DNA of 38,688 nt from Methylococcales bacterium (lineage in GTDB: Bacteria > Pseudomonadota > Gammaproteobacteria > Methylococcales > Methylomonadaceae): NCBI GenBank assembly GCA_023134955.1, contig JAGLUC010000345.1:1-38688 (forward strand). Reading direction: 5' to 3'. This document shows, piece after piece, positions 12,001 to 35,845 of this stretch. Every line of letters begins with the position of its first letter. Position 1 is the first letter of the stretch. The notes under the pieces are model-generated. The model searched no databases. It had not been told where the DNA came from and saw only the letters and a program-made list of their open reading frames with translations. The position numbers and the translations under genes are program-made.

Positions 12001-15000
12001 AGATGATGATAACCAAACGGATACCGCTGCAGAAATAAATGATAGAAATTTTGATGCAGCAACATTAAATGCATTAAAAACAGCACTTATTAATACCGGT
12101 GCGGAAGTAGTAGGGCAGTTACGCATTACGGTAGTAACTGAAAGTAAAGCATGGACTGTTGTTGATGAGAGGGGTTCTAGCTTTTCAATCAATTTAAATG
12201 GCTCTTCTTTTGTTGCTTCTCGTGCATCAATTAATGCCGTGGTCGGAGCCGCTGCGCTTAGTGTGGGTGTGGGTGCTTTTGGTGGTGCTGTCAGTGGCGC
12301 GGGTGCAGTTGCACTTAACGCTATTCAATCCACTATAAAAGCTTATATTGATAGCTCAGATATTGATGCTAATGGTGGTGGAGATATTCTAGTTGATGCC
12401 AGAAGTGACAGTCAGATTAATGCTCTGGTTTTGTCCGTATCACTTGCTGTTGGCGTTGGTGCTACGGGGGTTGGTGCTGCACTGGGTGTCTCAGTTGCAC
12501 GTAACTTCATCGGTTTTGATTTAGCAGGTAATTCAGTTGCTAACTCAGGTGAGACTACGGCTTATACACTTAACTCCACTATTGATGCTCAAGGTGATTT
12601 GCTTATTCAGGCAGAATCCAGTCAAGAAATTCGCGCCTTAGTGATGGCGGGTTCTGCAGCCGTAGCAGGTGGTGCTGTTGGTGTGGCCGTGTCTGGCTCT
12701 GGCGTTTATGCAGAAAATAAAATTGGTGCAAATACCGAAGCCTATATAGAAGGTGATGGTGTAGGTATTGTGGCAGATAACATTACCGTATCGGCTAAAG
12801 ATACTTCGGAAATTGATGCCATTGCGGCGGCGACCTCTATTGCTGCAGCGGTAGGTAGTGTGGGCGTGGGTGTTAGCTTAGGCCTATCGCTTGCGGATAA
12901 TGCAATTTCAAGTACAGTCAATGCCAAAATTGACAATGCAGGTGATACTGTTCACGCCAGAGCAGGAAATATTAATGTAACTGCAGATGACATGTCATCT
13001 ATTCGAGCAACATCTGCAGCAGCAACACTTTCAGTAACAGCGGGGCTTACTAGCGTTGCCGTTAGCGGGGCAGGTGCTTGGGCAAAGAACACAATAGAAA
13101 CAGCGACTAGTGCAATAATTGAAGACTCTACTATTAATGCTGATGGTGGCAGTGTAGTGGTAGTTGCGAATGGTTCGGCAAGCATTGAAGCACAAATTAT
13201 TTCAGCCGCACTTTCGTTAGGTGTTGGCGGTGTGGGTGTTGGCGTTTCAGTGGGGGCTTCCTTAGCTGAAAATACTATTGGTGGCAATGCAACCAATGGT
13301 GTATTTGCCCATGTTTTACGTTCAACGGTGACTGCTGACCAAGATGTAACGGTCAATGCCGACATGAGCTCTACTATTGATGCGACAGTTGCGGCAATAT
13401 CGGTAGCTGTGGCTGGCGGTGTTGTAGGAGCTGCGGGTGCAGGCTCAGGTGCTGATACTAATAACACTCTGGATTATGGTGTAAAAGCCACCATTGAAGA
13501 TGCTTCAGTTACGGTAGCTAATATAGTTAATGTTCTGGTTACAGATGATAGCGAAATTGATAGTTTTGTGGGCGCAGCCTCAGTGGCTGGCTCAGCAGGT
13601 CTGGTTGGTGGATCAATATCTATTGCGGTTTCACTGTCGGATAATATTGTAACAAACGAAATTGAGGCATTTATTGACAATAGTAGTGTTACAGCCAAGA
13701 CTGTTAATGTGACGGCGGATGATGATAGCGAGGTTGATGCGCATGCTGAAGCGGCTGCAGTTTCTACGAGTATATCTTTAGGCTTTAGTGTATCAGGGAG
13801 CGGAGCAGAAACTCGGATAAGCGGAAATAATACGGTCAAAAGTTACGTCACTGGAACTGGCGGTAACGATGTATTTAATCTCACCCATGATTTAAATGTT
13901 AAAGCAACTTCTACCCCCGATTACTTTGGTGATGTGGGTGTTAGTTCTGTTGCGATTGGTCTGGCTTCATTTGCTGCAAACGGTGGCGTGGTTAATGTCT
14001 CTGTTAAACCCGATATTAGTGCTTATGTAGAAAATGTGACAGTCAATGCGGATGAAATTGATGTTGATGCCATAGCCCAAATTCGAGCTAAGGGCACTGC
14101 TTGGGGTATGAGTATCTCAACAGGTCTCTCTATGGGAGTAAGCCAAGTCAATGTAACTACAGATGCCGATGTTGATGCTTATGTTGGCGGTAATACCGGT
14201 ATTTTTAACATTAGAGCGATGCAGGTCAATGCGACAGCAGCAGATAATCCTAATGTTGGTGGTATGACTGGTCAAGCTAAAGCGACTTCATCAGCTGGTG
14301 GCTTATTGCTGGGTGCAAGCTCTACCGTTGCTAATACTTATAACTATAATACGATTACGGCAAGAGTTTTGGCCGGAGCAGATGTAAATGCCAGCGGCAC
14401 AGTGACTGTTACAGCCAACAATGAAATTAAACAAGAAGCCGATGCCAACTCTGCGGCAGGTGGTTTGATAGGTGTGGGCTCTTCTTCTTCCAAAGCGACT
14501 TCAAATACAGTTACCAGAGCTGAGGTTGAATCTGGTGTTAGTCTTAATGCTAATAGACTTAATATTTCCGCATTGGGTGAGTCTGAAAATTTTGCCGATA
14601 CCACTGCGGGTTCAGGTGGCGTGGTAAGTGGGGCAGCCGCAGCACCAGAAACTAATACGACTTCCATCGTTGAGGCACTGATTGGTGCGAGTGCAGATAT
14701 TAATCTGAGCGGAGTCAATGGAAAACTGGCAATAACTGCTAGCCACATTGCGCTTCCTAATACAAAAGTAAAAACAGATAGTTATGGCTTGATTGCTGGC
14801 TCAGGAGCTGTTGCAGACAATGCTATTACCAGCGATGTTCTCATTAGAATCGGTAATAATGCGGATGTTAGTGCGCAGAATATTAATTTAAATGCAACGA
14901 ATAAACTGGATAAGCTTGATGTTTCTGGTACAAATATTGATGGTGACGCTGGGGGGCTGGCGAGTGGTGCTAGTGCCAATAGTGATACTGTTGTTGATTT

Positions 15001-18000
15001 TTCAACCATTGTTGAATTTGATGCGAACAGTACGGTAGATGTTACTGATGTTGATGGTGAGTTTATCGCCAAGGCATTTAATGAAATAAAAGCTGTTGAT
15101 CAAGTCAGTTTGTTCACTGCAGGAGCAATTTCGGGTGCGGGTGCTTTTACCTCGTTGATTACTACCCAGAATTTGGCTCAGATTCTAATCGACGATAATG
15201 CCACAGTAACGAGCAAAGGTGATATTGAGTTAGAAGCCCAAGGTGCGACCGATGTTTATTTGCAGTCTTACTCCGAAACATATGGTGCTGCGACAGTGGC
15301 ATTGGGTGATGCGATTATAGAAATCACACCTGAGAACCGAATCGATATTAATAATGGCGCCTACCTTTTAGCAGAAGGCGACCTTTTTATCAGTGCAGGA
15401 ACCGATAAAGATTTAAGAATTGCGGATCATGACTTAGAAGCACGGGTTGATAATTTCGCGGGTTCAATTATTCCCATAGATGACCTTGAAACAAGGGCGC
15501 TTTATATTGTCGACAATATTATCTACGTTCATGCTGGCGGTGCTATCGAAAGTTACCAAAATATTGATTTGAATGCTGATGAATTTGGCTTGGCTAGCGT
15601 TATTGGTGAAGCCAAAGGCACTAATTGGGCTTCAGCACTGGGTGATGCTATTGATAGTGCCTTGGGTGGAAACAATGAGACTTTTGGCCCCGGAGAAGGT
15701 CTAGCGGATGCTCATGGTCAGGTGATTAATGACGGTACTATCCGCACCGGTGCAAAACGGGTTAAGACGCTGGTTCTGGATACCATAGATGCAGTCACTG
15801 GCGAGGTATCTAGCTCGACACCAACGGATTTAACGTTCTCATCTTCTCTGCAAACGGTTGAATCATCCAAGCAGAAATCGCTTAATGATGCATTTCAAAA
15901 CTTGGCACGTTACAAAGTGATTGACCCAGCTACGGGTGATTGGGTTAACCCTGATTTGGTTGATTTTTATGAAGCCGAAATTGTTAGACTACAGCAGGAA
16001 ATGCTTGATGAGGGTCTGGCAAGAGAGCTTTCAGATGGAAGTGGTGGTACTGAAATTGTTGCCATCGCCCAAAGTGCAATCACGGTAACTATTGATCCTG
16101 CAACCGCTCAGGCGGGACGTGTTCGAGTGCTCACTGACCAGTTATCAGGAACCGGTCTTTTTGATTCGCCTAAAGATGCACTCATTTCAATCATTAATGA
16201 TACACAAGCTTTTTTGATTATTAATGGCCTTGAAATTCCAGAAGTAAATGGCGGTGTTGTCTTTAATGGAATTGATGTCACTGATTCGGTATCAAGTACC
16301 GCTGCAAATAATTTGATTTTGGTTGAAAATGCGGTGGCTGTTTCAAAAGATAACAACCATCAAGTTGCTTCTGTGCCATCAGTCAATTTAGTTACACCCT
16401 CTTTAAATTTCAGCGCAGAATCTTTGTCGGCAGCTGGTGCTTTACCAGAAATTATTATTCAGAATACTTACGATGTAAGAGATGCGGGAGCTTCATTTCC
16501 ACCCTGGCCCGATATTACTATTGATGGACCGGTATTAAATCTGCGTGGCAATCTGTCTATCTTGAATAATCCTGTATCGGGCGCTAAAGGCGATGTGGTT
16601 ATTAATGCCGAGGTTAGTGCTTTAACTCAGAATATTGTCGCAGGCGGCAGTGTTTTTATTGAACTCATTGGTGACAATACCGCCTTTAATGTTAAAGGTG
16701 CACCGTATTCAAATTGGTTGGGTGGCAATTTGACAGGTAATGGTACTCGAGATGCCGCAATTGGTGAAAATGATGTAGAGGTTTTTCCGGGTGTTACTAT
16801 TGATGGCGACCATGATATCGCTGACTTTTTAGATGTTACACCTACGACACCTTCCTTGCAGGGTGACCGGATTACTATTAAAGCTGAATACATTAATGTT
16901 AATGGCATTATCCAAAGTGGTAAGGCAGATTTTAGTTTAACGTTGGATGCGGCAGTTAAAGCACAGATTGATGATATTCGTAGTGGCACACGTACGGAGA
17001 CTACATTAGAGACGAATAATAACGACTTCTTGGTTGAATATACTGATGGTCAAGTGGTCATTAGCGAGCTTAGACCTAGCGGTGGCTTTGTTGATTTAAC
17101 GGGACATGTGATGAACACCCGCAATGGCGAAATCATTGTTTACGGTGGTTTTCCAGACATTCATATTGTCAATAATATGGTTTTTGCTGAAGGAGAAATC
17201 CCTGAAATTGTTATTAATCGTATCGATGCTTCCGAACGAGGCGATGGTACATTAATCATCAAAGACAAAGCCAAAGGTGAATCAGACGGTTTTATTGAGA
17301 AATTAGTATGGAATGAAACGACTCAAGACTTTGATGTTGTTTTGGAGGCTGCAACTGTACCGTATACTACCATCTACCAAGTACAAAATGATGGCACTGT
17401 GCAAGTGATTGAGACCGGTAAAAGTACAGTTAATTCCAGTGCGAATAGCTTTGTTTATAACCCTGAGACCGGCTATCGTCACGGCTGGTCAGTCGGACAA
17501 TCATCAATTACCGAAACGATCAGAGAATACACCTTAAGTGACTGGTTGGGTATTGATGCCTTTGTACCAGATAAACATGAGCCCGATAAAGTAGATACCA
17601 GAATATTAAGTACTGCGCTGATAGAGGACTCTGATTATTTCTTTAAAGATACTTCATTAAACAATGTTGCTTACACCTTTAACTCAGTAAGTGTTGATGG
17701 TTTTTCTCAGGAAGAACGTACGGGTTATAACGAGAGAAGCACATGGTATGGCACCAACCACTACTGGTATCAGTACACGAAACTTGAAGGTGATACGTCT
17801 ACTTTTACTCATACCATAGAAGCAGACCGCCCCATAGGGGTTAGCTTTATTGGTCATGAGCAAGGCTCGGTTTTTATTGATGGTGGTAATTCAAATATTA
17901 TTGTCAATGGCGCGATACAAAACGAAACCGGTGATACCACTATTATTACCAGTGGCACAATCACCAGTACAGCCTCTTCAGATGCGAGTGCATCGGGATC

Positions 18001-21000
18001 TGTCGGTGGACGAATTATCGACTTGACTGGTAAACAAGTCGGAACAGATTTGAGTGCGTTACGTGTCGACTTATCGGATACAGTCAGCGATCAACGGCTA
18101 GATGTTACCAGTGCCGGCGCAGTTTTTGTTAAAGAAATTGATGGTGATTTATGGGTCGGTGAAATCGTTGCTGGCGCAGGGGAAGAGGCTACCTTAACAG
18201 CGCACAATTCAATTTTACGGGCTTCTTCAGGTACATCATTAATTACCGGTGGTGAAATTAATCTAACTGCTGACAGTGGCGATATTGGTAACGCGACCTC
18301 GCTGCTTTCTATTAATACAGGAGCCAGAGAGGGCGACAACCTTTCTGCTTATGCCACGGGTGGTATTCATATTTCAGAAACTGCAGGAGACTTGCGCCTG
18401 TTTGAAATTTTAGCAGGAGGCGATGTAACCGTTGAGGTTTTGGGCGGTAATTTGCTTGATGGCAATACAACTGAGATTAACGATGACCGAGCCATTGAAG
18501 AGTTACGTAACTCTGTGTGGGCTGATTTGCAGTTGACTGATTATGCCGATGGCGTGTTGACAGGAGCGGCATCTGCCAAAATTCAGGAAACTAAAGATTC
18601 TTTATCTAATGCTAAAACAAGCGAATATAAGACTTATTGGTCATGGCGGATGGTGCAAAGTGATCACCTTGTATTCCGTGTAGGCTCAGGCGTTTATGAT
18701 GGTTTTGCATTATTACAAATGAGTACTGATGAGCTGGCGTTTTATGATGATTTCTATCGCCAGCAAGGTATTGATGATGGGTTGTCGGGTGTGGCTCTTG
18801 ATGATTTTGTTGATGCAGCAGTATTAACTCTGCTAACGACACGAACTGAGCAATACCGTACTCTGGATGCTACCTATGGTAGTGATGGTGGCAGCGATGG
18901 AGATGTGGATACTTTTGATGAAGAGTATCTGGTCGCATTGACTCAAGCAGAAATTGAAGCGATTGAGGCCTCTATTAAAATTTGGACAGAAGAAGAGCTT
19001 ATTAATGGCATTGGTATTGGTATTCTTAAACCTGTAACGGATACTGATATTGTTATTGAAGACCCTAATATAGTCGGCTCAGCCATTACCTTAAATGTTT
19101 CTGGCTCTATTGGGCGTACAGGCGGACAGGAACTCATTCCGATTACAGCAGGTGGCAATTTAACCGAAGAGCAACGAATTACTCTAGGTGCTGCAGAACG
19201 CGACGATGTTTTTTATCTAGTCACAGATCGTGAACAGGCCACCGTTAATTTTGATGCTGGAAATAATACTATTACGCGTACATCGGGAACCTGGGGTTCT
19301 GAGTTTGTAGCAGGAATGGTCATTCAGGTCGAAGGCACGACTGCTAATGCAACTGAAGAAGGGCCTTTCTATACCATTCTTAGTGTAGTGGGAGGTACGA
19401 TTACAGTCGATGGTAGCCGTACAGCTCTGACCAGCACCGAGTCTTTAGAAAGTGTGCATGTTTCTGGTATTGCACTTGATCCTCGCGGTGTTACTGTCGA
19501 TGTTACAGCCAGTGTTTCTGGTGGCAACACAATTATCCGTAGTAGTGGAGAAGATTTTTCAGGTTTGTTTGCAGGTATGAAAATATTACTTAGCGGCGAT
19601 ACGGTAAATGGTAATGATGCTGATTCATTGTATGAGATTCAATCAGTCTCAGGTAATGTGATTACGTTGCTAGGAACACCTGGATTGACCAATGAAACAA
19701 GTATTTCATTGGTTGTAGACCAATACGTAGAGTTGGTTGCTGTACAAGTACAATTACGTGAAGATCTTGATATTGTAGCCAGTGGTGTTGTTACACTCAA
19801 TGCGGGTAACGAGACATTTATTGGTACGGAATCAAATATTACTCTGAATGAAGTGAATGTTGCTGGGAACTTACGGATTAAAGCTAATGGCTCAATTCTT
19901 AATGGCTTAGATGGTAGTGCGACTAATATTATTAGTGATAATTTACTATTAGAGGCTGGTTCTGGTTCTATCGGTGCGGTTGGTTCAGATAACCGTATAT
20001 ATCTTGATCTAGGTGCTACATCCACTGTCATTGCAAGAGCTTTGGGTGATATCGTATTAACAGAGCGAACCGGTGATATGAATGTTGCGACACTGTTCTC
20101 TAAATCGGGTGATGTCGATTTGGTGTCGAATGGCTCTATTCTGGATGCCATTGCCGAAGATTTTGTAAATATAGAAGCCAATGATATTCGCTTTGAAGCT
20201 GGTGCAAGTATTGGTGCTGATGGTAACGCATTGGATATTGAAGCACGGGGTGATGGTTCTGCGCTTGGCAAAGGTCTACTGACGGCAACAGCAGTAGGCG
20301 ATATATTTATTACTGAAGCCTTTGGCGATATGAATATACGCAATATTCTTTCGACTGCGGGCGATGTTACCCTAACTTCTGCGCTTAGTATTTTTGATGC
20401 AATGGATTTGGTTGATCCTGCTAATCCTAACTTGGGGGATGACTCATTATCAGTCAGCCTGCCAAAAGCAGATGTATTGGGAGATAATATTACCTTAGTT
20501 GCACGATTGGGCTTTATTGGCATAGACGGAAATGAACTCGATATTGATAGTCGTCGAGGTGGTAACGGTTTATTAAGTTCACAAAGTGCACAAAACACCT
20601 ACATTATTGAAACAAGTGGTGATGTCTTTATTGATCAAGTAGGCACTGATGCAATGACTGCATTTATTACTGCAACTGTGGGCGGCATTTATAATGGTGC
20701 GGCACTGGGCGTGTCAAATGTAACGGGTGGTCGAGCATTCCTATCAGCTAATACCAATATAGGTACATCTGCTAAACGTCTCTTTACTCAGATTGGTACT
20801 ATTCAATCTATTTCCATAACAGGCTCAACTTTTGTTACTAATGATGGCGCATTAGATATTAATCAAATTAGGGGTGCTGTAGGGCAGATCGCTGGTGGCG
20901 ATATAAATACTATGGCTTCAAGTCCAGTGACTGTCTTAGCAGATATGATTGCAGCAGGAAATATTACAGTTGATGCCAATGAAAGTGCGGCAAATGACTA

Positions 21001-24000
21001 TGATGTTATTACCGTGAATTCAGGCGTTACCGTCGATGCAGGCGGCAGTATTTTCTTTAATGCTGGTGACCACATTGTTGTACAGAGTGGTGCGACAATT
21101 GAGGCGAATAATGATATTACATTTAATACCGATGTAGCTAATCTGGATGCTGGCGGTGGTGATATTACCATTACAGGATTAGTTGATGCCATTGCTGGCA
21201 CAGTTACCTTGGCATCAAACAGTGATAACGATAGCTTTGTAGTCGATGGTGCTATTAAGGCTGGTGATCAGGTGCTGGTAACAATGGGCAATGGTGCGGA
21301 TACTTTTATAGTTACAGGTAGCATATTGTCAAATGCGCTACTTTCAGTAAATACCGGTGCTGGGAATGATGTTTTTACAGTTATCTCGGGTGGCTTACTG
21401 CAATCTAATAGTGGCAATGTCGAAATTAATACTGAAGCCGGGGAAGATACCCTGCTCGTTGCCGAAACAGGAACGCTAGCAGGAACGAGTATTGCTATTG
21501 CCAGTGGCGATAGTAATGACCAAATTACTATCGAAGGTATGCTAGATGCTGGAACCAGCACTATATTGATTGATGCGGGAGCGGGTGAGGATGTTGTTTT
21601 ATTAGATACGCCTATTTTGATTGGTCAAACCACTGTATTCGGTGGTGCTGACGATGATTTGATTACAGTAAACAGATTACCTACACAGGGTGCAACGGAT
21701 ACCTTAATGCTAGATGGTGGTGAAGGAAATGATGATCATATTGTCAACCTGACTGACCCAGCAACAGTTGCAGGGCTAGGTACTGAATATAGAATAGATG
21801 TCTTTGATACAGGGATAGGCGACACCGATACGCTTACCGTTAATGGCACAGCATTAGCAGATAACATTCTGATGCGTGCGAGTGAAAAACAGAAAGTAGA
21901 TGGTGGAGTAGCTTTTGTTGCTGCGTTACATAACGATGATCCAACCATTGCCGTTGAGCGGATTAATTACGACAAGGGGCTCGAAGAACTAATCGTTGAA
22001 ACTGGAGATGGTGATGATAATGTTAGTCTTGATGATAACTGGGTCACTACAACGGTTCGGGGTGGTGCAGGTCAGGATAATTTTCAGATTGGACAAATTT
22101 TTAAAACAGCACGTGATGCTGCAAATGCCAATATTGCATTAGAAGATGAGTTTGAGACAGTTTTATCAACGCGTGGGCATTTGAGTAACGGTGTTAGTTT
22201 TGAGACAACAATTGAAGGCGGTGATAATGAGGATACTTTCGTGGTATTCCGAAACTCTGCCAGACTGAATTTATTTGGTGATGACGGTGATGACTTGTTT
22301 GTTATTCGCTCATTTGCAGAAGAAGGTTCTAGTGATAGCGACATTGACCTTGGAGAAGGTGCAGATACCGTTGAATATGTTTCTAATGCGGCTGTAAATG
22401 TTATCGGTGGAAATGGTAATGATACTTTGCAGTTTATCGGTACTGAGTTTGGTGATGACTTTCTGATTACCAACAATAGTATCAGAGGTGCTGGGCGAAC
22501 TATTACTTACCAAGAAATAGAGAATCTTGAGATTGATGGTGCAGAAGGCGATGATAATTTCTTTGTTTTCTCAACCAATGAAAACGTTATAACCAAATTG
22601 TTTGGCGGCCTTGGTAATGACAGCTTCAGTATCGGAGGTGACAGTGGATCAGTTGTTGTCGCTGATAATGCGATAGAGGCGGAACAAGAAGGCCCACATA
22701 ATGTCGCGGGAATATTGGGTGCTTTAGAAATTTATGGTTTTTCTGGTAATGGTACAGCTGGTGGCTTAGGCGACCCAGTGATGCTACCTGGCGAAACTAA
22801 TGTTCTACCATCAGATGGTACAGTGCTTGGCTACCAAGTGGGTGATAACACTGACGATACCATGACTGTTTTAACAAGTGCATTGCAAACGGTAATTAGC
22901 AATGATGAGGACCTAGATGATTTACAAAGTTTAATAGGGCAAACGCTGGAAATCAGTAGTGGTGCTGGAATATCCCGTTTCTGGGCGATTACAGCAGTTG
23001 TTGATAATAATGGCACTAATACAACACTGAGTTTGCAAAATCCAACACTACCCGCAGAAGAGTGGGAAGACCCTACCATAGGTAGTGAATATGCCATTAC
23101 CCATTTATCAGCAAATTTCTTTGTTGATGAATCCTTGGCTTTAGATAAAGTGACTGTTTTTAATGATGGCAGCAGCTTGAATTCGAGTGGACTACTGACA
23201 GCAAATACACTCACTGGACTTGATATGGTCGCTGTGGGCATTAGCTATGGTGATTTTGAAGCCTTTGAGTTGCTATTAGGCACAGGCAATGATGATTTTA
23301 CGGTGGATTCTACTGCAGATGGTGTGATTACGGCGATACATGGTGGTGCGGGTGATGATCTGATTACCATTAATAGTCGAGGTGGTTTAGATAGTCGTGG
23401 ACTGGATGGTTCATTGGTCGTTTTTGGCGATACCACTCAAGATGGTAGCCGATATATAGACAGTAACACTGTGCTTTTACCTGGTTTTGCATACGGTTTT
23501 GATACGGTGGGAAACGACACTATTGATGCTTCATCTGCTGTCAAAATGGTTTCAATCTATGGCGGCGGCGGTAACGATATTATTATCGGTAGTCAGGCTG
23601 GAGATCATCTTGCAGGTGGTTCTGGTGATGATGTAATTACTGGCTTGGATGGTTTAGATCATATCTATGGTGATTCAGGTATTAATCTTGAGCTTGATAC
23701 GCGAGTACTCACGATAGTGACAGTGGACACGAGTTCGGAAGATGCCAGAGATGTATTATTAGCAGGTAGCGACATAATAGATGCTGGCGAGGGTGATGAT
23801 ATTATTTTTGGTGACCATGGGATTATCGACCAAACTGTGAATACAGTTAGAATCCTTAGCACATCAAATATAGAGCGGATTAGCACCACTGAAGAGACAG
23901 TTGGTTTAGATGATATTATTATCGGTGGTTTGGGTAATGATCGGATTCTAGCGGGTAATGCCGAAGATCAAGTTACTGATTTAATGGATAATAATATTAT

Positions 24001-27000
24001 CTTGGGCGATCATGGTTATATTGACTATGTATCAATAGATGGTGATCTGAGTGATATTGATGTAATAGAAAGTACTTCTACCACCGTAGGCGGCGGCAGT
24101 GATGGCATCCGCAGTGGTTTTGGCAACGACATTATTCTAGGCGGACGCTTTGGCGACCAAATCAACAGCCTGGGTGGTGACAACCTCATCCTTGGTGATA
24201 GCGGTAGTATTACCGCCGCCAATACTGGTACAGCACAACTGGCAGGACAATCCATCACTCTAGGGTTAATTACCAGCACCGAATTTGATGACGGCGGTGC
24301 CGACACCATCACCACCGGTGCAGGTCAAGACATCGTATTGGGCGGAGATGAAGGCGATATTATAGCTACAGGTGATGGCAGTGATATTGTACACGGTGAT
24401 AACGCGCGTCTGGATTACACCAGTGGTAGTTCAATTACACTTGATTTAATTGAAACGCTTGCTAATGATATAGGCGGTGAGGACATCATTCGAGGTGAAG
24501 GTGCCGATGATATATTAATTGGTGGTACTTTAGCTGACCGCATTGATGGTGGTAGCGAAGAAGATCTGATTTTTGGCGATAATGTTAATCTGGATCGTAG
24601 CGCTACTTATGGTAATTTTACTAATCTACGATTCCAGACATTGACGGGCTCCGAAATTTACGGCAGTGGTTTAAATGTGAATGGTTTTGTTGAAGGAGAA
24701 GTGTTGATTAGTAATACTGCACAACTTGATCCACAGGGCATGTCTGCATTTTGGTCTGATTTCCAGATTACATTGCTTGACCATGATGATGCTAGTAATA
24801 CAAACAAGTTCGGTGACGATTATATTGCCGGTGGCGCTAATGATGACCAAATATTTGGTCAGTTGGGTAATGATGTAATTCAGGGTGATGGCACTATTGA
24901 CCTGAATGTATCAGCGGCTCGGTTAGCAGCAGATGGAACGCTTAGTCTGAGTGCCTCGGTGGAAGATTTTGATCATTTTGATGAGTCAAACTTGGTCTTC
25001 TCTGTTGAAGGTAATGATGGTGATGACTATATCGAAGGTAATGGCGGTGATGATGTTATTTTTGGTAACCTTGGTCAAGATGACATTATAGGTGGCAGCT
25101 CGACGTTATTTAGCCTTGATAGCCAAGGTCACCGTCCAGATGGAGCCGATTTGCTTTTTGGTGGTGCAGGTGTTGATGTTATTCGAAATAATTTGGGTGA
25201 TATTAGCCATGCTGTCGATTCCGACATGATTCTGGGTGATAATGGCAATATCTATCGACTAGTCACTGGCGGCACGAGTAATGCTTATCTTGGTTTTACT
25301 TATGATAACTATGGTGGAGAAAAAATCATTGTGCGTGCGGCAGAACTTATTGACTACACAGCAGGTGAAGCTCACCTGGATGTCAATGGACTGAGTTCGG
25401 ATATCGGTGCTGCAGATGAGATTCATGGTGAGTCGGGCGATGATTTTATTTATGGCATGGTCGGTAATGATGTTTTATTCGGTGACGGCCAGGATGATGA
25501 CCTAATCGGTGGCTATGGCCATGACTGGATATCAGGTGGTACTGGCGATGATGGCATACTTGGTGATGATGGTTTGATTTATACCAGTAGAAATGGTGTA
25601 ACAGGAGAGTCTTTATATGGTATAGGCGCTGTTGTAGAACAAACAATCAGTACACCAGGAGATTTTCAGCAAGCTACTATTAATGTTTTAGGCGAGCTTA
25701 AAAAGACTGTTAATTTAACACCTTTTAATGTTGACCTAAATACAGCACTTCAAGACCACTTATATGATGCTCAGTTTGCTGATGACATAATCTATGGCGG
25801 CTGGGGAAATGATTTTTTACATGGTGGTTCTGGTGATGACGCTATTTCCGGAGCAGAAGCATTAAATAGTTTCTACTCTGTACCGAGTAATTTAGGTGAT
25901 GAACTAGGCTATAACAGTTTAATAGTGGGGGAATTTGTCGCTTATGACGAATTTAACCCATTACTTAAAATTAATAACTTCTTCCTTAATTTTAATGCTG
26001 GTGAAGGTGAGGTAGTGCTTGGGGAAGCAGTCCTAACTGATGGTAATGACCGGATATTCGGTGACCTGGGTAACGACTGGCTAGTCGGGGGAACAGGAAG
26101 AGATCATCTATATGGAGGTTATGGTGATGACCTACTCAATGCCGATGATAATCTTGACAGCAATGGCGGTCTCAATGATGTTCCAGATGGCCCTCAAGCC
26201 TCTTACGAGGATTTGGCATTTGGTGGCGCTGGTCGCGATATATTAATAGCCAATACAGGTGGCGACCGCTTGATAGATTGGGCAGGGGAATTTAACAGCT
26301 TTGTTGTACCTTTTGCACCCTTTGGTTTAGGGACAGTCAGCCGGGCTTTGCAACCACAAATTGCAGACTACCTCTATGATTTATCAGCAAGTGATGGTGC
26401 GGATTCGACTCGTGCTGCTGATACTGGTACAAATATTGCCAGAAATGGGGAGCCAGATGGTGAGCTAGGTCTCGTTACACAGCAAGATACTGATTGGCAA
26501 GATCAGACTGGAGCACCTGCTGATCCACAACCTGGTAATGTGGCAGGCGGTGCGCGTGACGTATTGCGAAGTGCTACTTCAAATCTATTGGCACAAGAAG
26601 CGGCCATAATAATATCTGCAGAAGAGTTAAGTCAGATACAATTAACAGAGATTGTTAATACGGCTAAATCATCTTGGCAAGAATCAAGATTATTAAATCA
26701 AGCATCACTTTCCAAATTAGATAAAGTGGAGATAAGAATTGCTGATCTAAATGGTTTGAAACTAGGTCATACAGCGGGTAATAGCATCTATATAGATATT
26801 AATGCAGCGGGTCACGGCTGGTTTATAGATACCACGCCAGATATTAACGAGGAATACCAACGCAATGGCGAAGAATATAGCCTGACAGCACTAAATAATA
26901 CTGCGGCTAGTGATAATATGGATTTACTCACAGTAGTTAAACATGAGTTAGGACATATTTTGGGCTATGCACATGATAGTAATGGTGGTTTAATGGAAGA

Positions 27001-27418
27001 TACCTTACAGGTCGGTGAGCGAAAACTAATAGTACCTGAGGCGCTAAACTTCACAAGTAATGTAAAATCGGATAGTGCTACAACGCTTTCAAAAATAGTG
27101 GAAAAAGCAACATTTAGTGCTAAAAAATTACTTGGCATTAGCACACAACAAGGAAATATTGATTTTCAATATTTTGATGAGCTATTTGGTGTCTTTAATA
27201 ATCAGGAGGTCACTATAGAACCTGAGGATAGCAAAGAAGACTTTTTGATCTTTAGTAATGATAAAAACCAGGATGGTAAAGAAAACCATGCAACCCAGTA
27301 TCAACTAAGAAAAGGGCATGAATCTAATGGCTCAGATCAACGAGCAACGGAAAATAAAGCTGAAGGAAGAGAAACGGAACTCACTGTTTTAATTGACTGG
27401 AGTGACGGAGAAGACTAG
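11..27418 (+). CDS. Giant secreted-type repeat protein (at least 9135 aa, probably 5'-partial): beta-solenoid-like repeats, RTX-type GGxGxD Ca-binding block, C-terminal HExxHxxGxxH zincin-like module
   Basis: A 27.4 kb stop-free frame in AT-rich DNA cannot arise by chance. Codons 2-10 (aat ttt aat) are also open, and the first residues ([17 protein letters not shown]) already sit inside a repeat that recurs near aa 7500 ([18 protein letters not shown]), so the TTG at 11 is probably not the true start. There are dozens of GGxGxD nonapeptide-like motifs between roughly 21590 and 26290. [11 protein letters not shown] is at 26942..26974. The stop codon TAG is at 27416..27418. Confidence 0.9.
   Translation: [9135 protein letters not shown]
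2630..2940 (+). repeat. Copy A of a ~310 bp near-identical dispersed direct repeat inside the giant ORF
   Basis: It aligns base-for-base with 6269..6579 at a constant offset of 3639 bp (1213 codons). I count about 16 mismatches, 7 of them in a patch at 2701..2720. A perfect 114 bp run covers 2747..2860. Confidence 0.85.
6269..6579 (+). repeat. Copy B of the ~310 bp near-identical dispersed direct repeat inside the giant ORF
   Basis: See copy A. Immediately outside the tract, identity falls to the level of the other paralogous modules; for example 2590..2629 versus 6229..6268 differ heavily. Confidence 0.85.
11051..11476 (+). repeat. In-frame tandem duplication, 2 x 213 bp (71 codons), inside the giant ORF
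   Basis: Unit 1 (11051..11263) and unit 2 (11264..11476) encode [35 protein letters not shown]....YDM..QDFS..DLWEQIN twice. The first ~180 bp of each unit are roughly 85-90% identical, with perfect runs such as ttaactaaaaatgtaacgacagtagaagtgct. Confidence 0.85.
21590..26290 (+). repeat. RTX-type (hemolysin-type calcium-binding, GGxGxD) nonapeptide repeat-coding block of the giant ORF, interrupted by non-RTX inserts
   Basis: Examples are [40 protein letters not shown] (about 23561..23680), [49 protein letters not shown] (about 25429..25575), and [20 protein letters not shown] (ending about 26280). Looser G.G.D.(F/L).(V/I) units run from about 21000. Boundaries are approximate. Confidence 0.8.
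26942..26974 (+). other. Zincin metalloprotease signature [11 protein letters not shown] (HExxHxxGxxH) in the C-terminal module of the giant protein
   Basis: The in-frame codons cat gag tta gga cat att ttg ggc tat gca cat were read directly. The next residue is D, and a Met (GGLMED) follows 7 residues after the third His, a candidate Met-turn. Confidence 0.7.
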
Positions 27419-27497
27419 AGCTTTTTCAGCTAAAAAATGACCTGCTCTGAGGAGGGCTAATGAATTTAACTTTATTAATAATAATGAGAAAAATAAA

Positions 27498-28283
27498 ATG
27501 AGCACACAACTATTAATCTACGAACGCGCAGAACCCATCAGTAAACAGAAACATAGCAACTGGTCAGTAAAAACAGGTGGTAGTTACGATTTTACAAAAA
27601 ATATTAATTCAGCGCCATTAACTGCAGTAGAATTTCCTAATGCATCTACGGAATACAGTATTGTTTTTGCTGGCAATGATGATGCTGTTATGCCAGCAGT
27701 TATATTAGGCTTACGAGACCAGGAAAACCTGTATTTATCAGAAGATGGAAAATGGAACAGTAAATATATCCCTGCTTTCATTCGTCGGTATCCATTTGTA
27801 TTCTCCAGTAGTAATGAAGCTAAACAATTTACCCTCTGCATAGATGAAGAGTTTTTGGGCTGCAACCAAGACGGTATAGGTGAACGACTGTTTGATACCG
27901 AGGGAGAACAGACCCAATACTTAAAAACAGTTTTAAATTTTTCCAGTGAATACCAAGGTCAGTTCAACCGAACTCAATTATTCTGTAAAAAATTAAAGGA
28001 ACTGGATTTGTTAGAGCCTATGCAAGCACAGTTCACCCTGCCAACAGGGGAAAAAATGAACTTAGGCGGGTTTCAGGCGGTCAGTCGTGAGCGCTTAAAA
28101 AAACTAAGCAATGAACAGTTAGGAGAACTAGCTAAAACGGATGAGCTAGAATTGATTTATCTGCACTTGCAATCGATGAGAAATTTCAATGCTATGGTGG
28201 CTCGGGTTCCTGAAAGTGATGCGAGCTCAAATGTTGCAAAAGACTCTAAGAAAGAAAAACTATCTAAAAAAGATATGCATTAA
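27498..28283 (+). CDS. SapC-family protein
   Basis: The 261 aa ORF has an N-terminal half (LLIYERAEPISKQKH..., APLTAVEFPNASTEYSIVF, YIPAFIRRYPFVF) that matches my recollection of the conserved SapC-family core (YxPAxxRRYPF). It starts 79 bp after the giant ORF on the same strand, with no convincing terminator between them. Confidence 0.75.
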   Translation: MSTQLLIYERAEPISKQKHSNWSVKTGGSYDFTKNINSAPLTAVEFPNASTEYSIVFAGNDDAVMPAVILGLRDQENLYLSEDGKWNSKYIPAFIRRYPFVFSSSNEAKQFTLCIDEEFLGCNQDGIGERLFDTEGEQTQYLKTVLNFSSEYQGQFNRTQLFCKKLKELDLLEPMQAQFTLPTGEKMNLGGFQAVSRERLKKLSNEQLGELAKTDELELIYLHLQSMRNFNAMVARVPESDASSNVAKDSKKEKLSKKDMH

Positions 28284-28649
28284 ACTAGCAAAGCCTTCCT
28301 TCTATACTCTTTACGTTTAAGAATATCCCATTCTAGTATGTAGATTATTGTGATGAGCTAGGTGTAAAGCAGCAGGAATAGTAATCTATTTCAATGCTTT
28401 ACTTGGCAACTGCTCCTCGGTAATTGCTCTTGCATTATTCTGCTACGCACCATCCATGGCATTAAACAACGCTCATCGCGATAAGATGCGTGCTAGAGTG
28501 GGGTATTTTTGAGCGTGAAGAGTTATATGTATCAACTTTGTGAAATTGTTCTATAGATATTAACAAGCTTGATACTCTGCATTCGCTCAAATACCACTTG
28601 TCTGGTAGTCTATAGCCTCTTATCGTGATTTTATTAATAATCAATTTAC
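28284..28649 (+). promoter_or_regulatory. 366 bp AT-rich intergenic region, probable promoter/regulatory region of the four-gene operon
   Basis: This is the only sizeable non-coding gap between the giant ORF and 35845. A candidate sigma70-like pair is TTGTCT (28598..28603), a 17 nt spacer, then TATCGT (28621..28626). A hairpin GTAAAGCA(23 nt)TGCTTTAC sits at 28364..28402 with no T-tract. All of this is motif-by-eye only. Confidence 0.3.
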
Positions 28650-30803
28650 ATGAGTAATGTTTTTTCCAAAATTATGGATGAAAATCGTAATGAATATAGG
28701 GTTCCTGTTGAACCAGGAACTACGGTTATTATTCATAGTGGTGACAGGGAAATTGTCGGGACAATTGAGGATAAGTCCGAGGGTGGACTAGGTTTAAGAA
28801 TACCAGAAGCTTTTAAGCAGTATATAGATCAAAATACTGTTGTGACCATGACTTACAGTATGCCTTATGGACTAGTCAGCCATCAAGCGCAGGTCTGTTG
28901 GAGTAACTCAGATAAAGCAGGTGAATTAACGATAGGAACAAGGTTTCTTGAGGCTGAGCCTGGCTTTCAAACAGACTATCAAAAATTATGGAAAGACTTT
29001 ATTGATGCGGAGAAGCTGGAAGATGTGGCTCGTTTTTGGTTGAGTCTTCAATCGGCAATGATTAGTGGGGTTACCCGTGCGGTTGTGGTGTTAGGTGAGC
29101 CAGGGGGTGAAGTATTTTCTCCAGTTGCATTTTGGCCGGAAGCACAAACCGGAGTAATTGGGCTAACCGAAGTTGCAGAACTGGCTTTACAAGAAAAACG
29201 TGGGGTGTTGAGAGATGAGGGACAATACAACAAAGACCTGAATATTCGAGTTTGTTATATTGGTTTCCCACTAATGCTGGATGAGAAACTGTGTGGTGTG
29301 GTGGCTATAGAAATAGTTGTTCGTCCAGAACCTTTGATGCGTGCAGTTATGCGTCAGCTACAATGGGGGACGGCATGGATAGAGTTAATTATTCGCCGTA
29401 TTGATGGCAAAAAATACACCCCTGAAAATCAGCAATTAGTTACCGTTCTGGAACTGATAGCGACGAGCTTGGAACATGATAGTTTTCAGGCGGCGGCAAC
29501 CAGCGTTGCCACAGAACTAGCAACTATTTTGGAATGTGAGAGAGTAAGCATTGGTTTTTTGGTAGGGAAGTATATGCAAGTTGAAATCTTGTCTCATAGT
29601 ACCGATTTTACGAAAAAATCAAAATTGGTTCAGAGTCTTGGCTTGGCGATGGATGAAGCAATGGATCAACAAACTTCTCTTGTTTTTCCTGCGCGTGAGG
29701 ATGACACGGTAAAAATTCTAAAGTGTCATGAAAAATTATTACAGGAACAAGGTAGTAGTGGTGTTTGTACAATTCCTTTGTGTAATAAAGGCAAGGTATT
29801 TGGTGCTTTAACAATGGAGCGTTCATCGGGCGATTTATTTGCTAAAGATACTGTCGATTTATGTGAAACCATCGCCTCTCTTGTTGGTCCTATTTTAGAG
29901 GCAAAACGAAGGCAAGATTTGTGGTTAGTCATTAAGTTTGGCTTGTCGATAAAAGAATTTATATTTAAGCTCACAGGGCCGGATCATGCAGGGTTTAAAG
30001 TTATAAGTGCAATTTTTGCGGTAGCAATTTTATTTTTTATCTTTGCAACAGGAAGTTTTCGAGTTGCTGCAGATGCCTATCTTGAAGGCTCTATTCAGAG
30101 GGTTATTGTTACACCGTTTAATGGTTATATCAGTGAAGCCTATGTCCGTGCCGGTGATGTGGTAAAAAAAGGCTCACCTTTAGTAAAACTGGATGATAAT
30201 GACTTATTGTTGGAGAGAGCTAAATGGAAAGGGCAGAAAGAACAGTATAGAAAAGAATATCGTGAGGCACTGGGTAAAGCAGAACGCAGTAAAGTCAGTG
30301 TGTTAAAAGCGCGACTTCGGCAAGTGGATGCACAGCTTGCGATGATGGATGCTCAATTATCTCGTATACGGGTTAATGCACCTTTTGATGGCATTATTGT
30401 TTCGGGTGATTTAAGTCAATCTTTGGGTTCCCCTTCTCAGCGAGGGGATGTGTTGTTTGAAATTGCACCATTAGATGCTTATCGAGTGATATTGGAAGTG
30501 GATGAGCGAGATATTTCAACGATTAATGTAGGTCAGTCAGGCGAGTTAGTTTTAACGGGTCATAGTGATAGAGTTATTGCTTTTAAGGTTAAAAGTATTA
30601 CACCTGTTTCTGAGGTTAAAGAAGGACGTAATTATTTTCGAGTAGAAGCAAAATTGAATACTCAAATTGATGATTTACGCCCAGGGATGAAAGGTGTAGG
30701 TAAGATTATAATCGGTAAACGTAATTTAATCTGGATATGGAGCCGACCTCTCCTTGACTGGTTGCGATTGAGTTTGTGGACTTGGTGGCCACAAGGCTTA
30801 TAG
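28650..30803 (+). CDS. PilZ domain + two GAF-like domains + single TM + HlyD-family membrane fusion protein (periplasmic adaptor)
   Basis: The PilZ signature is RNEYR (RxxxR, 28686..28700) plus DKSEGG (DxSxxG, 28770..28787). Residues ~125-420 resemble two GAF-like modules. A hydrophobic helix FKVISAIFAVAILFFIFATGSF covers aa 449-470. The C-terminal ~240 aa have MFP organisation: a lipoyl-like half (VRAGDVVKKGSPLVKLD), a short coiled coil, NAPFDGII, then beta-barrel segments. Confidence 0.85.
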   Translation: MSNVFSKIMDENRNEYRVPVEPGTTVIIHSGDREIVGTIEDKSEGGLGLRIPEAFKQYIDQNTVVTMTYSMPYGLVSHQAQVCWSNSDKAGELTIGTRFLEAEPGFQTDYQKLWKDFIDAEKLEDVARFWLSLQSAMISGVTRAVVVLGEPGGEVFSPVAFWPEAQTGVIGLTEVAELALQEKRGVLRDEGQYNKDLNIRVCYIGFPLMLDEKLCGVVAIEIVVRPEPLMRAVMRQLQWGTAWIELIIRRIDGKKYTPENQQLVTVLELIATSLEHDSFQAAATSVATELATILECERVSIGFLVGKYMQVEILSHSTDFTKKSKLVQSLGLAMDEAMDQQTSLVFPAREDDTVKILKCHEKLLQEQGSSGVCTIPLCNKGKVFGALTMERSSGDLFAKDTVDLCETIASLVGPILEAKRRQDLWLVIKFGLSIKEFIFKLTGPDHAGFKVISAIFAVAILFFIFATGSFRVAADAYLEGSIQRVIVTPFNGYISEAYVRAGDVVKKGSPLVKLDDNDLLLERAKWKGQKEQYRKEYREALGKAERSKVSVLKARLRQVDAQLAMMDAQLSRIRVNAPFDGIIVSGDLSQSLGSPSQRGDVLFEIAPLDAYRVILEVDERDISTINVGQSGELVLTGHSDRVIAFKVKSITPVSEVKEGRNYFRVEAKLNTQIDDLRPGMKGVGKIIIGKRNLIWIWSRPLLDWLRLSLWTWWPQGL

Positions 30804-34990: not shown

Positions 34991-35845
34991 ATGTGTCGAA
35001 TAATAATAAAAAAATCTGTTATCAGCCTATTGCTGGTGCTTTCTAATACAGTATTTGCTGGCAATGGGAAGGTCTTAGATTGTGTGCTGGAGCCGTCAAT
35101 GGTTGTTGAGCTGAGCAGTCAAGTTCGTGGTGTAATTGAGAATATTTATGTTGAACGTACTGATGTTGTTAAAAATGGGCAGCTAGTTGCTAATTTAATG
35201 TCGGGAGTGGAGAAGGTCAGTGTTCAATTGGCTATGGATAGATCGAAAATGGTTGTAGATATAAAATCTAGAAAAGCTGAACAAAAATTTAGAAAGCATA
35301 CCTTCGAGCAGGTAAAAGAGCTTTACAGGAAAAAGCTTGCCTCACAGCGTGAATATGAAGACGCTAAAACCTCAAGTATTGTTGCAGACATTGAACTGGA
35401 AAAAGCTATAGAACTAAAGTACCTGGCAGGTATGGAGTTGAAACGTACTCAAGAGATACTTAAACTTCGTTCTATGCACAGCATGATTGATGGCGTAGTA
35501 GTAGACGTGATGAAGTCACCAGGTGAATTTGTTGAGGAACAACCAGTCATGAAAATCGCTCAAATTGATCCCCTTTTTGTTGAAGTAATCGTACCTGAAA
35601 CATTAATGGGCAGGGTTAAGGTGGGAAAACAATTAAAGGTTAATATTGAAATACCAATAGCAGCTAGCCATTTGGCAACAGTGAGTGCAGTCGATCAAAT
35701 TATTGATGCTACAAGTGGTACCTTTGGGGTACGGCTGATACTACCTAATCCAGATAATAAAATTCATGCGGGTCAACGTTGCCAAGTTGTTTTGGTTGAT
35801 GAACCCCTGAAACTCAACTTAAATAAATATAAAAATAAAAGGTAA
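34991..35845 (+). CDS. HlyD/RND-type periplasmic adaptor (MFP) with cleavable Sec signal peptide
   Basis: The N-terminus is MCRIIIKKSVISLLLVLSNTVFA|GN, with a positive n-region, a hydrophobic core and an AxA-like site but no lipobox. The rest has lipoyl-like halves (VKNGQLVANL ... SMIDGVVVDV), a coiled-coil hairpin, and a barrel segment PLFVEVIVPE...VKVGKQLKV. The start lies 9 bp after the SecA-like stop, with AGGAAATTAGG just upstream of the ATG. Confidence 0.8.
   Translation: MCRIIIKKSVISLLLVLSNTVFAGNGKVLDCVLEPSMVVELSSQVRGVIENIYVERTDVVKNGQLVANLMSGVEKVSVQLAMDRSKMVVDIKSRKAEQKFRKHTFEQVKELYRKKLASQREYEDAKTSSIVADIELEKAIELKYLAGMELKRTQEILKLRSMHSMIDGVVVDVMKSPGEFVEEQPVMKIAQIDPLFVEVIVPETLMGRVKVGKQLKVNIEIPIAASHLATVSAVDQIIDATSGTFGVRLILPNPDNKIHAGQRCQVVLVDEPLKLNLNKYKNKR

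Follow-up and report, generated by a model that had tools for sequence, protein, structure and literature searches.

A canonical PilZ domain on the GAF-type membrane-fusion subunit of a SecA-like export module in Methylococcales: a candidate c-di-GMP switch beside a giant RTX protein gene

Why should a membrane-fusion protein (MFP), the adaptor of an export machine, carry on its cytoplasmic side a PilZ domain of the type that binds cyclic di-GMP (c-di-GMP), a second messenger? This question is raised by a gene of a Methylococcales bacterium (Methylomonadaceae; assembly GCA_023134955.1, contig JAGLUC010000345.1), found in a stretch of 38,688 nucleotides (nt; positions 1 to 38,688 of the forward strand, hereafter the window) between a giant RTX protein gene and three further genes of a presumed export module (Table 1). 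Its product of 717 amino acids (aa) consists of a PilZ domain, two GAF-like domains, a single transmembrane (TM) helix and a periplasmic MFP domain. An earlier note on this locus, made from the sequence alone, had proposed that ligand occupancy in the cytoplasm is transmitted through the TM helix to the periplasmic adaptor. We infer instead that the PilZ domain binds c-di-GMP, alters the cytoplasmic GAF-GAF platform and switches export of the giant protein, a reading for which we hold the scales to be evenly poised.

Pfam, two AlphaFold2 (AF2) models and Foldseek agreed on the domain reading. With the full protein as query, Pfam placed PilZ at aa 11-104 (38.8 bits against a gathering cut-off of 22.5, E 1.3e-9), GAF at aa 280-413 (44.3 bits), HlyD_D23 at aa 484-680 (E 2e-19) and HlyD_3 at aa 575-679 (E 1e-20), all above the gathering score, and the isolated PilZ domain matched PF07238 at 43 bits (E 5.9e-11). 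A Kyte-Doolittle profile contained one strongly hydrophobic helix, at aa 447-465. In the AF2 model of aa 1-448, built from a 114-sequence alignment with a predicted local distance difference test score (pLDDT) of 82.6, a beta-barrel (aa 17-99) was followed by two alpha/beta units of GAF topology (aa 109-251 and 258-423), which a helix connects. The best PDB matches of this model were tandem GAF proteins, namely phytochrome PAS-GAF-PHY structures and the GAF-A/B region of the phosphodiesterase (PDE) PDE5A (3lfv), with E from 5e-12 to 1e-9. The first unit (GAF1) remained below the Pfam cut-off, with a weak GAF_3 match (E 0.0023), so that GAF2 alone passes. The earlier note had recognized most of this layout: its RNEYR (aa 13-17) and DKSEGG (aa 41-46) motifs were confirmed by hand against the translation, its tandem GAF-like region corresponds to the two modelled units, its TM helix at aa 449-470 coincides with the hydrophobic peak, and its MFP domain is the one matched by the two HlyD families. 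The complete PilZ-GAF-GAF-TM-MFP architecture appears to be undescribed so far.

The PilZ domain has the features of a canonical c-di-GMP receptor. A separate AF2 model of aa 1-112 (pLDDT 76.9), which has the six-stranded beta-barrel known from solved PilZ domains, was compared with the PDB by Foldseek and matched almost exclusively solved c-di-GMP-bound PilZ domains, among them those of PP4397, BcsA, PA0012, YcgR, Alg44, PlzA, MrkH, MotI, VCA0042 and MapZ; the top matches were 3kyf, 4p00, 8u0i, 5y6g and 4rt0, at TM-scores of 0.56-0.69. Sequence-based searches of the PDB with the PilZ region, either as a single sequence or as a 27-sequence profile, returned no PilZ domain, and the structure search alone succeeded. 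The N-terminal domains of the homologs matched PF07238 in 26 of 27 cases. Conservation was assessed in 37 PilZ-bearing homologs with 40-77% identity over the domain. R13, R17 and G46 were invariant, position 41 was D or N in all 37, and S43 was kept in 32, which is also the number with both c-di-GMP motifs intact; the x positions of the motifs varied freely. Selection on the residues that would contact c-di-GMP should give such a pattern. The invariance of the motif residues, together with a predicted fold that matches c-di-GMP-bound PilZ structures, makes binding of c-di-GMP by this domain likely.

Some PilZ domains are protein adaptors, and a second way to read the same domain is as a module that acts independently of c-di-GMP in docking or localisation, for example by tethering the SecA-like ATPase, SapC or the cargo, and whose motifs are kept for structural reasons. 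It could be argued from the loss of the motif serine in 5 of the 37 homologs, where S43 is replaced by N or H, and from the lineages, almost all of them, in which the machine does without PilZ. However, the invariant residues are exactly those that contact c-di-GMP, with freely varying neighbours, and the structures that come closest are canonical PilZ domains with bound ligand, so that we regard a purely docking PilZ as unlikely.

The PilZ region is translated and under purifying selection. The ratio of nonsynonymous to synonymous substitution rates (dN/dS) was calculated against a relative with 79% identity (L085; L numbers denote fetched loci), since relatives with 64% identity were unusable because dS was saturated. 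It was 0.63 for the unconserved tail at aa 2-12 and 0.063 for PilZ (aa 13-105), values of 0.067, 0.063 and 0.094 being obtained for GAF1, GAF2 and the TM helix plus MFP domain, respectively. The first in-frame start is the ATG at 28650, the codon to which the N-termini of the homologs align, and a gene caller chose M9 instead (P0001, 709 aa). In an alignment of five loci from SapC to PilZ, DNA similarity to the relatives began at this ATG; the upstream intergenic DNA was unconserved and contained no conserved element. The earlier note had seen a weak point of its proposal in a true start downstream of the PilZ motifs, and such an annotation artefact, or a non-functional N-terminal region, could be suspected from the choice of M9 over M1 and from the lack of an obvious Shine-Dalgarno sequence before either ATG. 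That explanation is essentially refuted: M1 and M9 both precede R13, the next in-frame ATG (by eye at aa ~66-71) would halve the beta-barrel, and both the tenfold step in dN/dS and the onset of similarity at the ATG speak against it.

How unusual is the PilZ domain within the family? An exhaustive HMMER search of 1.84 billion cluster representatives (50%-identity clusters) gave 2,386 matches at E <= 1e-30, and a scan of one genome per species found relatives in at least 538 species of Gamma-, Beta-, Alpha- and Deltaproteobacteria, Nitrospirota, Nitrospinota, Rokubacteria/Methylomirabilota, Acidobacteriota, Myxococcota and others. With 590-640 aa, the majority of the homologs are shorter than the query and align only from its residue ~100-115 onwards, being GAF-GAF-TM-MFP proteins without PilZ. 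Residues 1-110 of the query were covered by only one of the best 150 cluster representatives, which was that of the query's own cluster (P0014), and a tail of ~110 aa before GAF1 was present in 4 of the 84 fetched loci examined (L001, L003, L004 and L083), all others having 0-64 aa. L001, from Methylicorpusculum oleiharenae (Methylococcales), and L004, from a Methylobacter metagenome-assembled genome, have the PilZ form, and those loci with the ~110-aa tail that are of named origin belong to Methylococcales or are probably mis-binned. PilZ is therefore a rare add-on in one lineage, whose named relatives are Methylococcales. Because most homologs share the long GAF-GAF cytoplasmic region without PilZ, this region is the family norm and not an oddity of this particular MFP, a context that the earlier note had missed.

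As GAF-GAF is the invariant core of this huge family, the GAF domains may be structural or docking elements instead of, or besides, ligand sensors. Residues of GAF1 that are invariant family-wide include W130, L131, Q134, W162, P163 and an RQLQWG stretch. In GAF2 (29535-29864, aa 296-405), the residues C296, H316, H360, C373 and C405 show family-wide conservation that is either complete or above 90%; they might build a site for a metal or cofactor, or an interface. Further conserved stretches are CERVSxGF, SHS and AMDEAxDQ. No NKFDE-like cyclic nucleotide motif was seen by eye in the GAF tandem. At the other end of the protein, a Trp-rich C-terminus, LIWIWSRPLLDWLRLSLWTWWPQGL (30726-30800), is near-invariant across phyla and unusual for an MFP; this tail may be an interfacial membrane anchor or contact the TM domain of the M50 protease described below.

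The protein is not an ordinary adaptor of a type I secretion system (T1SS) or of a resistance-nodulation-division (RND) pump, two candidates that were rejected since it falls below the curated cut-offs (TIGR01843 type_I_hlyD, 55.2 bits against 208.65; TIGR01730, 85.2 against 94.9) and has no ATP-binding cassette (ABC) or RND partner. Compared with HlyD and LapC, the MFPs of T1SSs, it shares the single TM anchor, the periplasmic lipoyl/beta-barrel/coiled-coil adaptor, an adjacent RTX-repeat protein and dependence on TolC, which is encoded in some of the module loci; in contrast, its cytoplasmic part measures ~445 aa against ~60, and three different MFP-domain proteins occur per module.

The gene order in the window is GAF-MFP, M50-MFP, SecA-like ATPase and small MFP, and the order of the first three genes was found in essentially every locus of sufficient length (~80 loci from more than 10 phylum-level groups). 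The small MFP gene usually comes next; sometimes it lies upstream or on the opposite strand, or was not found in the fetched flank. This module has already been described, in silico only. Using comparative genomics, Kamneva, Poudel & Ward (2015) proposed that it is a T1SS-like machine in which the SecA_DEAD protein serves as ATPase, the M50 protein as pore and the GAF protein in regulation or sensing (PMC4452313). Their genes META1p2402-2399 of Methylobacterium extorquens AM1, which encode a GAF protein with HlyD/biotin-lipoyl domains, a protein that combines Peptidase_M50 and HlyD, a SecA_DEAD protein lacking the C-terminal domains and a small protein with HlyD, are the same four genes in the same order, sometimes with OEP/TolC adjacent. 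The biological role of the secondary SecA_DEAD module was called 'completely unknown' there, with no mention of PilZ, c-di-GMP or cargo, and a single citing paper was found, written by one of its own authors. Relative to that module, the GAF-MFP of the window carries an extra canonical PilZ domain and is tied here to giant RTX/LEPR-XLL proteins. The 717-aa protein would thus be the GAF-type membrane-fusion subunit of a 'secondary SecA_DEAD' type-I-like export module composed of GAF-GAF-TM-MFP, site-2 protease (S2P)/M50 protease-MFP, truncated SecA-like ATPase and small MFP, with TolC encoded at the locus in some genomes, and this subunit would have gained its N-terminal canonical PilZ in a Methylococcales-related lineage.

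In the SecA-like protein, no scaffold/wing match (SecA_SW) was obtained and all SecA equivalog models stayed below cut-off: the protein stops in the first scaffold helix, without wing domain and C-terminal tail, and the two-helix finger is also missing, as judged by comparison with E. coli SecA. Homologs retain Walker A (60/67) and DEAD (61/67) and share the same truncated end position in all cases. RefSeq misnames orthologs as 'prepilin peptidase' or 'DEAD/DEAH box helicase' (L087 18866-20890; L089 16034-17950; L090 16016-17977), the L087 copy reaching E 1e-175 against SecA models, and this misnaming conceals the module in databases. Downstream of the intact module of L083 (21193-22154), three short open reading frames (ORFs) with SecA_DEAD, SecA_PP_bind and P-loop_SecA fragments look like a broken second copy of the gene.

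The M50-MFP has the active-site motifs HELGH (nt 31446-31460) and NGNPLLRFDG (nt 31728-31757); among 72 homologs, all retain HExxH and 66 retain NxxPxxxxDG. Its closest curated family, at E 5e-43 and below cut-off, is NF041824, a daptide HExxH intramembrane protease from the maturation of ribosomally synthesized and post-translationally modified peptides (RiPPs). The cytoplasmic N-terminus (30870-31121, aa 18-101) gave weak, concordant matches to PqqD or RiPP recognition elements (RREs), i.e. Pfam PqqD at E 0.075 and, as best PDB profile match, PqqD 3g2b at E 0.036, and a Methylosinus ortholog is named 'PqqD family protein' in RefSeq. By analogy with RiPP systems, this N-terminus suggests recognition of a leader peptide.

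A classical ABC-type T1SS was rejected as an identity for the locus, since SecA-like ATPase and M50-MFP stand in place of the ABC transporter, of which none was found among the scanned window ORFs or in the annotated related loci. On plasmids of Methylosinus sp. C49 (L089 18805-20232) and Thalassospira marina (L091 16958-18370), a TolC-family gene ends the module. On the latter plasmid (L091 13809-16924) the M50-MFP gene is followed directly by those for the small MFP and TolC, a SecA-like gene not being annotated in the interval, and NrfB, a c-di-GMP-activated glycosyltransferase, is encoded ~4 kb away on the other strand. PilZ-less modules were also seen in Rhizobium, Sinorhizobium, Ensifer, Mesorhizobium, Methylosinus and several roseobacters, where large plasmids or chromids carry them (H1-H14), and plasmid carriage is consistent with the horizontal spread proposed in PMC4452313.

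What, then, is exported? The most likely substrate would be the adjacent giant RTX protein. In all five PilZ-clade loci with enough flank, the order is giant ORF, SapC, PilZ-MFP, M50-MFP, SecA-like ATPase and small MFP, which makes plausible the link to the neighbouring giant protein that the earlier note had drawn. No in-frame stop precedes the giant ORF of the window upstream of nt 11, and the contig from which the window was taken measures 53,188 nt, against 38,688 nt for the window. Since the ORF is open at the 5' edge and the contig is longer, the protein probably exceeds 9,135 aa, with its N-terminus outside the window. Near its end it contains RTX nonapeptide repeats, with 11 HemolysinCabind stretches (Pfam, E 2e-32). 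Giants in other PilZ-clade loci measure 9,770, 11,955 and 13,490 aa, those in PilZ-less loci more than 6,023 aa (Nitrospina), 9,059 aa and ~3,200 aa (Neptuniibacter, Halioglobus), and those beside plasmid modules 12,918, 8,848, 10,519 and 4,034 aa. More generally, among the 51 loci whose upstream sequence covers at least 3 kb, 29 have a same-strand ORF of at least 900 aa, in most cases with RTX-like motifs, and the C-terminal module of the window giant has 45-60% identity to sequence upstream of the cassette in ~25 other loci.

The giants also share a feature at their start. Wherever the N-terminus of the neighbouring giant gene was visible, LEPR-XLL was present. Two plasmid giants are named 'LEPR-XLL domain-containing protein' by RefSeq, the Pseudosulfitobacter giant matches NF012209 at aa 49-68 ('LKMEALEPRFLLSADP'), and in all five carrier ORFs of at least 400 aa found by a regular expression in the fetched loci, each at or next to the cassette, the motif lies 47-92 residues into the stop-bounded frame. 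In these cassette-adjacent giants (L088 nt ~1563-1622, minus strand; L005, L012, L030, L042), a basic stretch of 47-92 aa is followed by [F/M]ExLEPRxLLSAD (NF012209, LEPR-XLL/LEPR-8K). The stretch is leader-like and may be a recognition or cleavage signal for the RRE-like M50 protease. As judged from synteny, the sole basis for this assignment, giant RTX/LEPR-XLL proteins are probable substrates of a TolC-dependent machine without an ABC transporter.

Two features of these loci lie outside this argument. After the RTX repeats, ~150 aa from its C-terminus, the window giant has a matrixin/metzincin-like domain (~26615-27016; motif at 26942-26974, HELGHILGYAHD then LME), which is also present in the Neptuniibacter giant (L037) and may be a self-processing or matrix protease. 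In PilZ-less loci, a DUF3467 protein of ~100-119 aa is encoded between the giant gene and the GAF-MFP gene (L084 9458-9817; L089 11556-11876; L090 10623-10928; L091 11564-11860), a position taken by SapC in the PilZ clade.

A different cargo has to be weighed here, since no giant ORF was found within 10 kb in ~40% of the loci. On that account the module would have another substrate for processing or export, such as a small leader-containing peptide as with RiPP HExxH proteases, or a small molecule; PilZ would control that activity, and the giant would be a frequent neighbour only; the similarity of the M50 part to daptide and epipeptide RiPP maturation proteases and the PqqD/RRE-like matches at the M50-MFP N-terminus would fit it. 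Against this, giant RTX/LEPR-XLL genes stand next to the module in the same orientation, both on plasmids and in several phylum-level groups, the cassette is accompanied by a conserved C-terminal module of the cargo, and the 366-nt gap at 28284-28649 of the window contained no credible small ORF, no precursor-like ORF and no DUF3467 equivalent. We therefore rate another cargo as quite improbable, slightly more so than a purely docking PilZ.

If the giant is the cargo, where would c-di-GMP act? On the reading that we prefer, the ligand would act on the PilZ domain after translation and change the conformation or packing of the GAF-GAF platform, which would lie beneath the membrane at the place where SecA-like motor, RRE-like domain and cargo have to come together. 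The cellular c-di-GMP level would then turn on or off the export of the giant, which is presumably a surface or adhesive protein. The route proposed by the earlier note is inside-out signalling, in which PilZ/GAF occupancy is relayed via the single TM helix and remodels the periplasmic adaptor (for example tunnel assembly or, one may add, TolC recruitment). The short cytoplasmic domain of HlyD is required for substrate-triggered TolC recruitment, which counts in its favour. So do a long helix at the C-terminus of GAF2 (aa 399-442), which in the AF2 model leads into the TM helix and would be continuous with it, and the resemblance of the cytoplasmic module to the tandem GAFs of phytochromes and PDEs, which signal via helical spines. 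On the other hand, the periplasmic part is indistinguishable from that of PilZ-less family members, and the TM and juxtamembrane helices have the lowest confidence of the model (pLDDT 52-62).

A known protein bears on the same choice. The PilZ-TM-MFP layout is not unprecedented, as it is that of Alg44, the alginate co-polymerase of Pseudomonas aeruginosa (PDB 4RT0), whose N-terminal PilZ, single TM helix and periplasmic MFP-like domain make it the closest architecture. Its PilZ, with both RxxxR and DxSxxG, was a fold match to the window PilZ at Foldseek rank 7 (18% identity). Alg44 binds c-di-GMP and binding through R17/R21 is needed for alginate production, yet its protein interactions and stability are not altered by c-di-GMP (PMC4436075), which argues against a signal that remodels the adaptor. 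The likeness to our proposal is the post-translational control of an envelope-spanning export machine by c-di-GMP. The differences are that Alg44 is without the GAF tandem, ~310 aa of GAF-GAF separating PilZ and TM in the window protein, and that its partner is the family 2 glycosyltransferase Alg8 and its product a polysaccharide, whereas the window protein is accompanied by an S2P-like protease-MFP and a SecA-like ATPase and has a presumed protein substrate of at least 9,135 aa, and no glycosyltransferase was found among the neighbours. Signalling through the TM helix to the periplasmic adaptor is in our view possible, though rather doubtful, and no more likely than regulation on the cytoplasmic side.

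Several observations weigh against control of giant export by the PilZ domain. The sub-clade in which S43 is changed may bind c-di-GMP more weakly. The giant gene is missing from the surroundings of the cassette in the ~40% of loci mentioned above, and in the window itself the N-terminus of the giant lies beyond the edge, where LEPR-XLL is not readable. Among the scanned window ORFs there was no TolC, ABC transporter, diguanylate cyclase or phosphodiesterase; as none lies within the 38.7-kb window, TolC must be encoded elsewhere. An Rfam scan of the window gave no matches and hence no c-di-GMP riboswitch. As for the other scans, PADLOC gave no matches and no link to a defence system, and a promoter/terminator scan of 27300-28800 was no better than for shuffled sequence.

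Two other systems help to place the proposal. The comparison with LapD/LapG made in the earlier note stands as a functional analogy, in that both would involve post-translational control by c-di-GMP over the display of a giant RTX-type surface protein. It does not extend to the components: in LapD it is a degenerate EAL domain that detects c-di-GMP, and the protein acts by sequestering LapG, a periplasmic protease, whereas our proposal concerns the export step and not retention or release, and neither a LapD-type GGDEF-EAL/HAMP receptor nor a LapG-type cysteine protease gave Pfam or NCBIfam matches in the scanned window ORFs. A LapD-like receptor was also rejected as an identity for the 717-aa protein, which is without EAL, GGDEF and HAMP domains. 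In giant proteins of Omnitrophota and Actinobacteria, SecA-like units without scaffold and wing have been linked to the export of proteins of more than 10,000 aa (bioRxiv 10.1101/2023.11.21.568195). There the unit is inside the giant polypeptide, whereas in the window it forms a protein of its own (662 aa), encoded in an operon with MFPs; by analogy, they provide a second hint that SecA paralogs may serve giant-protein export.

A broader model can be put forward tentatively, and we hold it to be a good deal less probable than the switch itself. In this model, the four-gene module plus TolC would be a distinct, ABC-free secretion system for LEPR-XLL/RTX giants, in which the SecA-like motor pushes the unfolded chain through a channel of the S2P-like protein and the three MFPs, the RRE/PqqD-like domain reads the leader and M50 cleaves it, GAF-GAF docks the motor and, in this lineage, PilZ gates the process by c-di-GMP, which would make it the first protein-export adaptor under second-messenger gating.

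Table 1. Coordinates of the features discussed, numbered from the first nucleotide of the window; all lie on the forward strand.
Feature	Coordinates (strand)	Evidence
Giant RTX protein, at least 9,135 aa, presumed cargo	11..27418 (+)	ORF open at the 5' edge of the window; HemolysinCabind, matrixin-like domain
SapC-family protein, 261 aa	27498..28283 (+)	PF07277, E 1e-73; same position in all PilZ-clade loci
PilZ-GAF-GAF-TM-MFP protein, 717 aa	28650..30803 (+)	ORF; Pfam PilZ, GAF, HlyD_D23, HlyD_3; full-length homologs with 56-80% identity
PilZ domain, aa 11-104	28680..28961 (+)	PF07238, 38.8 bits; AF2 beta-barrel; Foldseek; dN/dS 0.063
RxxxR motif RNEYR, aa 13-17	28686..28700 (+)	Sequence; R13 and R17 invariant in 37/37 PilZ-bearing homologs
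[D/N]xSxxG motif DKSEGG, aa 41-46	28770..28787 (+)	Sequence; D/N 37/37, S43 32/37, G46 37/37
Divergent GAF-like domain 1, aa 109-251	28974..29402 (+)	Weak GAF_3 match, E 0.0023; AF2 topology; tandem matches phytochrome GAF-PHY and PDE5A GAF-A/B
GAF domain 2, aa 258-423	29421..29918 (+)	PF01590, 44.3 bits; AF2 and Foldseek
Predicted single TM helix, aa ~447-470	29988..30059 (+)	Kyte-Doolittle peak of 2.44 at aa 447-465; AF2 helix at aa 426-442 runs up to it
Periplasmic HlyD-type membrane-fusion domain, aa 476-691	30075..30722 (+)	HlyD_D23, HlyD_3 and TIGR01730 matches; PDB sequence matches MacA, MexJ, EmrA, LipC
Trp-rich C-terminal tail LIWIWSRPLLDWLRLSLWTWWPQGL	30726..30800 (+)	Near-invariant family-wide
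S2P/M50-like intramembrane metalloprotease-MFP fusion, 715 aa	30819..32966 (+)	Peptidase_M50, HlyD, NF041824 E 5e-43; seven predicted TM helices
C-terminally truncated secondary SecA-like ATPase, 662 aa	32993..34981 (+)	SecA_DEAD, SecA_PP_bind, P-loop_SecA; Walker A and DEAD
Small periplasmic MFP, 284 aa, signal-peptide-like hydrophobic N-terminus	34991..35845 (+)	TIGR01730, 110 bits against a cut-off of 94.9

The export of proteins of 5,000-13,000 residues by bacteria is poorly understood, and few systems are known in which c-di-GMP controls surface deployment after translation (LapD/LapG and, for polysaccharides, Alg44/BcsA). The locus described here connects a widespread export module known in silico only, a likely cargo class of giant RTX/LEPR-XLL proteins and, in one lineage related to methanotrophs, a core subunit to which a putative c-di-GMP receptor of canonical type is fused. 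This fusion can be seen as a natural experiment that hints at the regulated step, for which the point mutants R13A, R17A and S43A would be probes. If the proposal is true, a protein-secretion adaptor would join the polysaccharide synthases as a target of direct gating by a second messenger, and the locus would help to define a secretion pathway driven by a SecA paralog instead of an ABC transporter.

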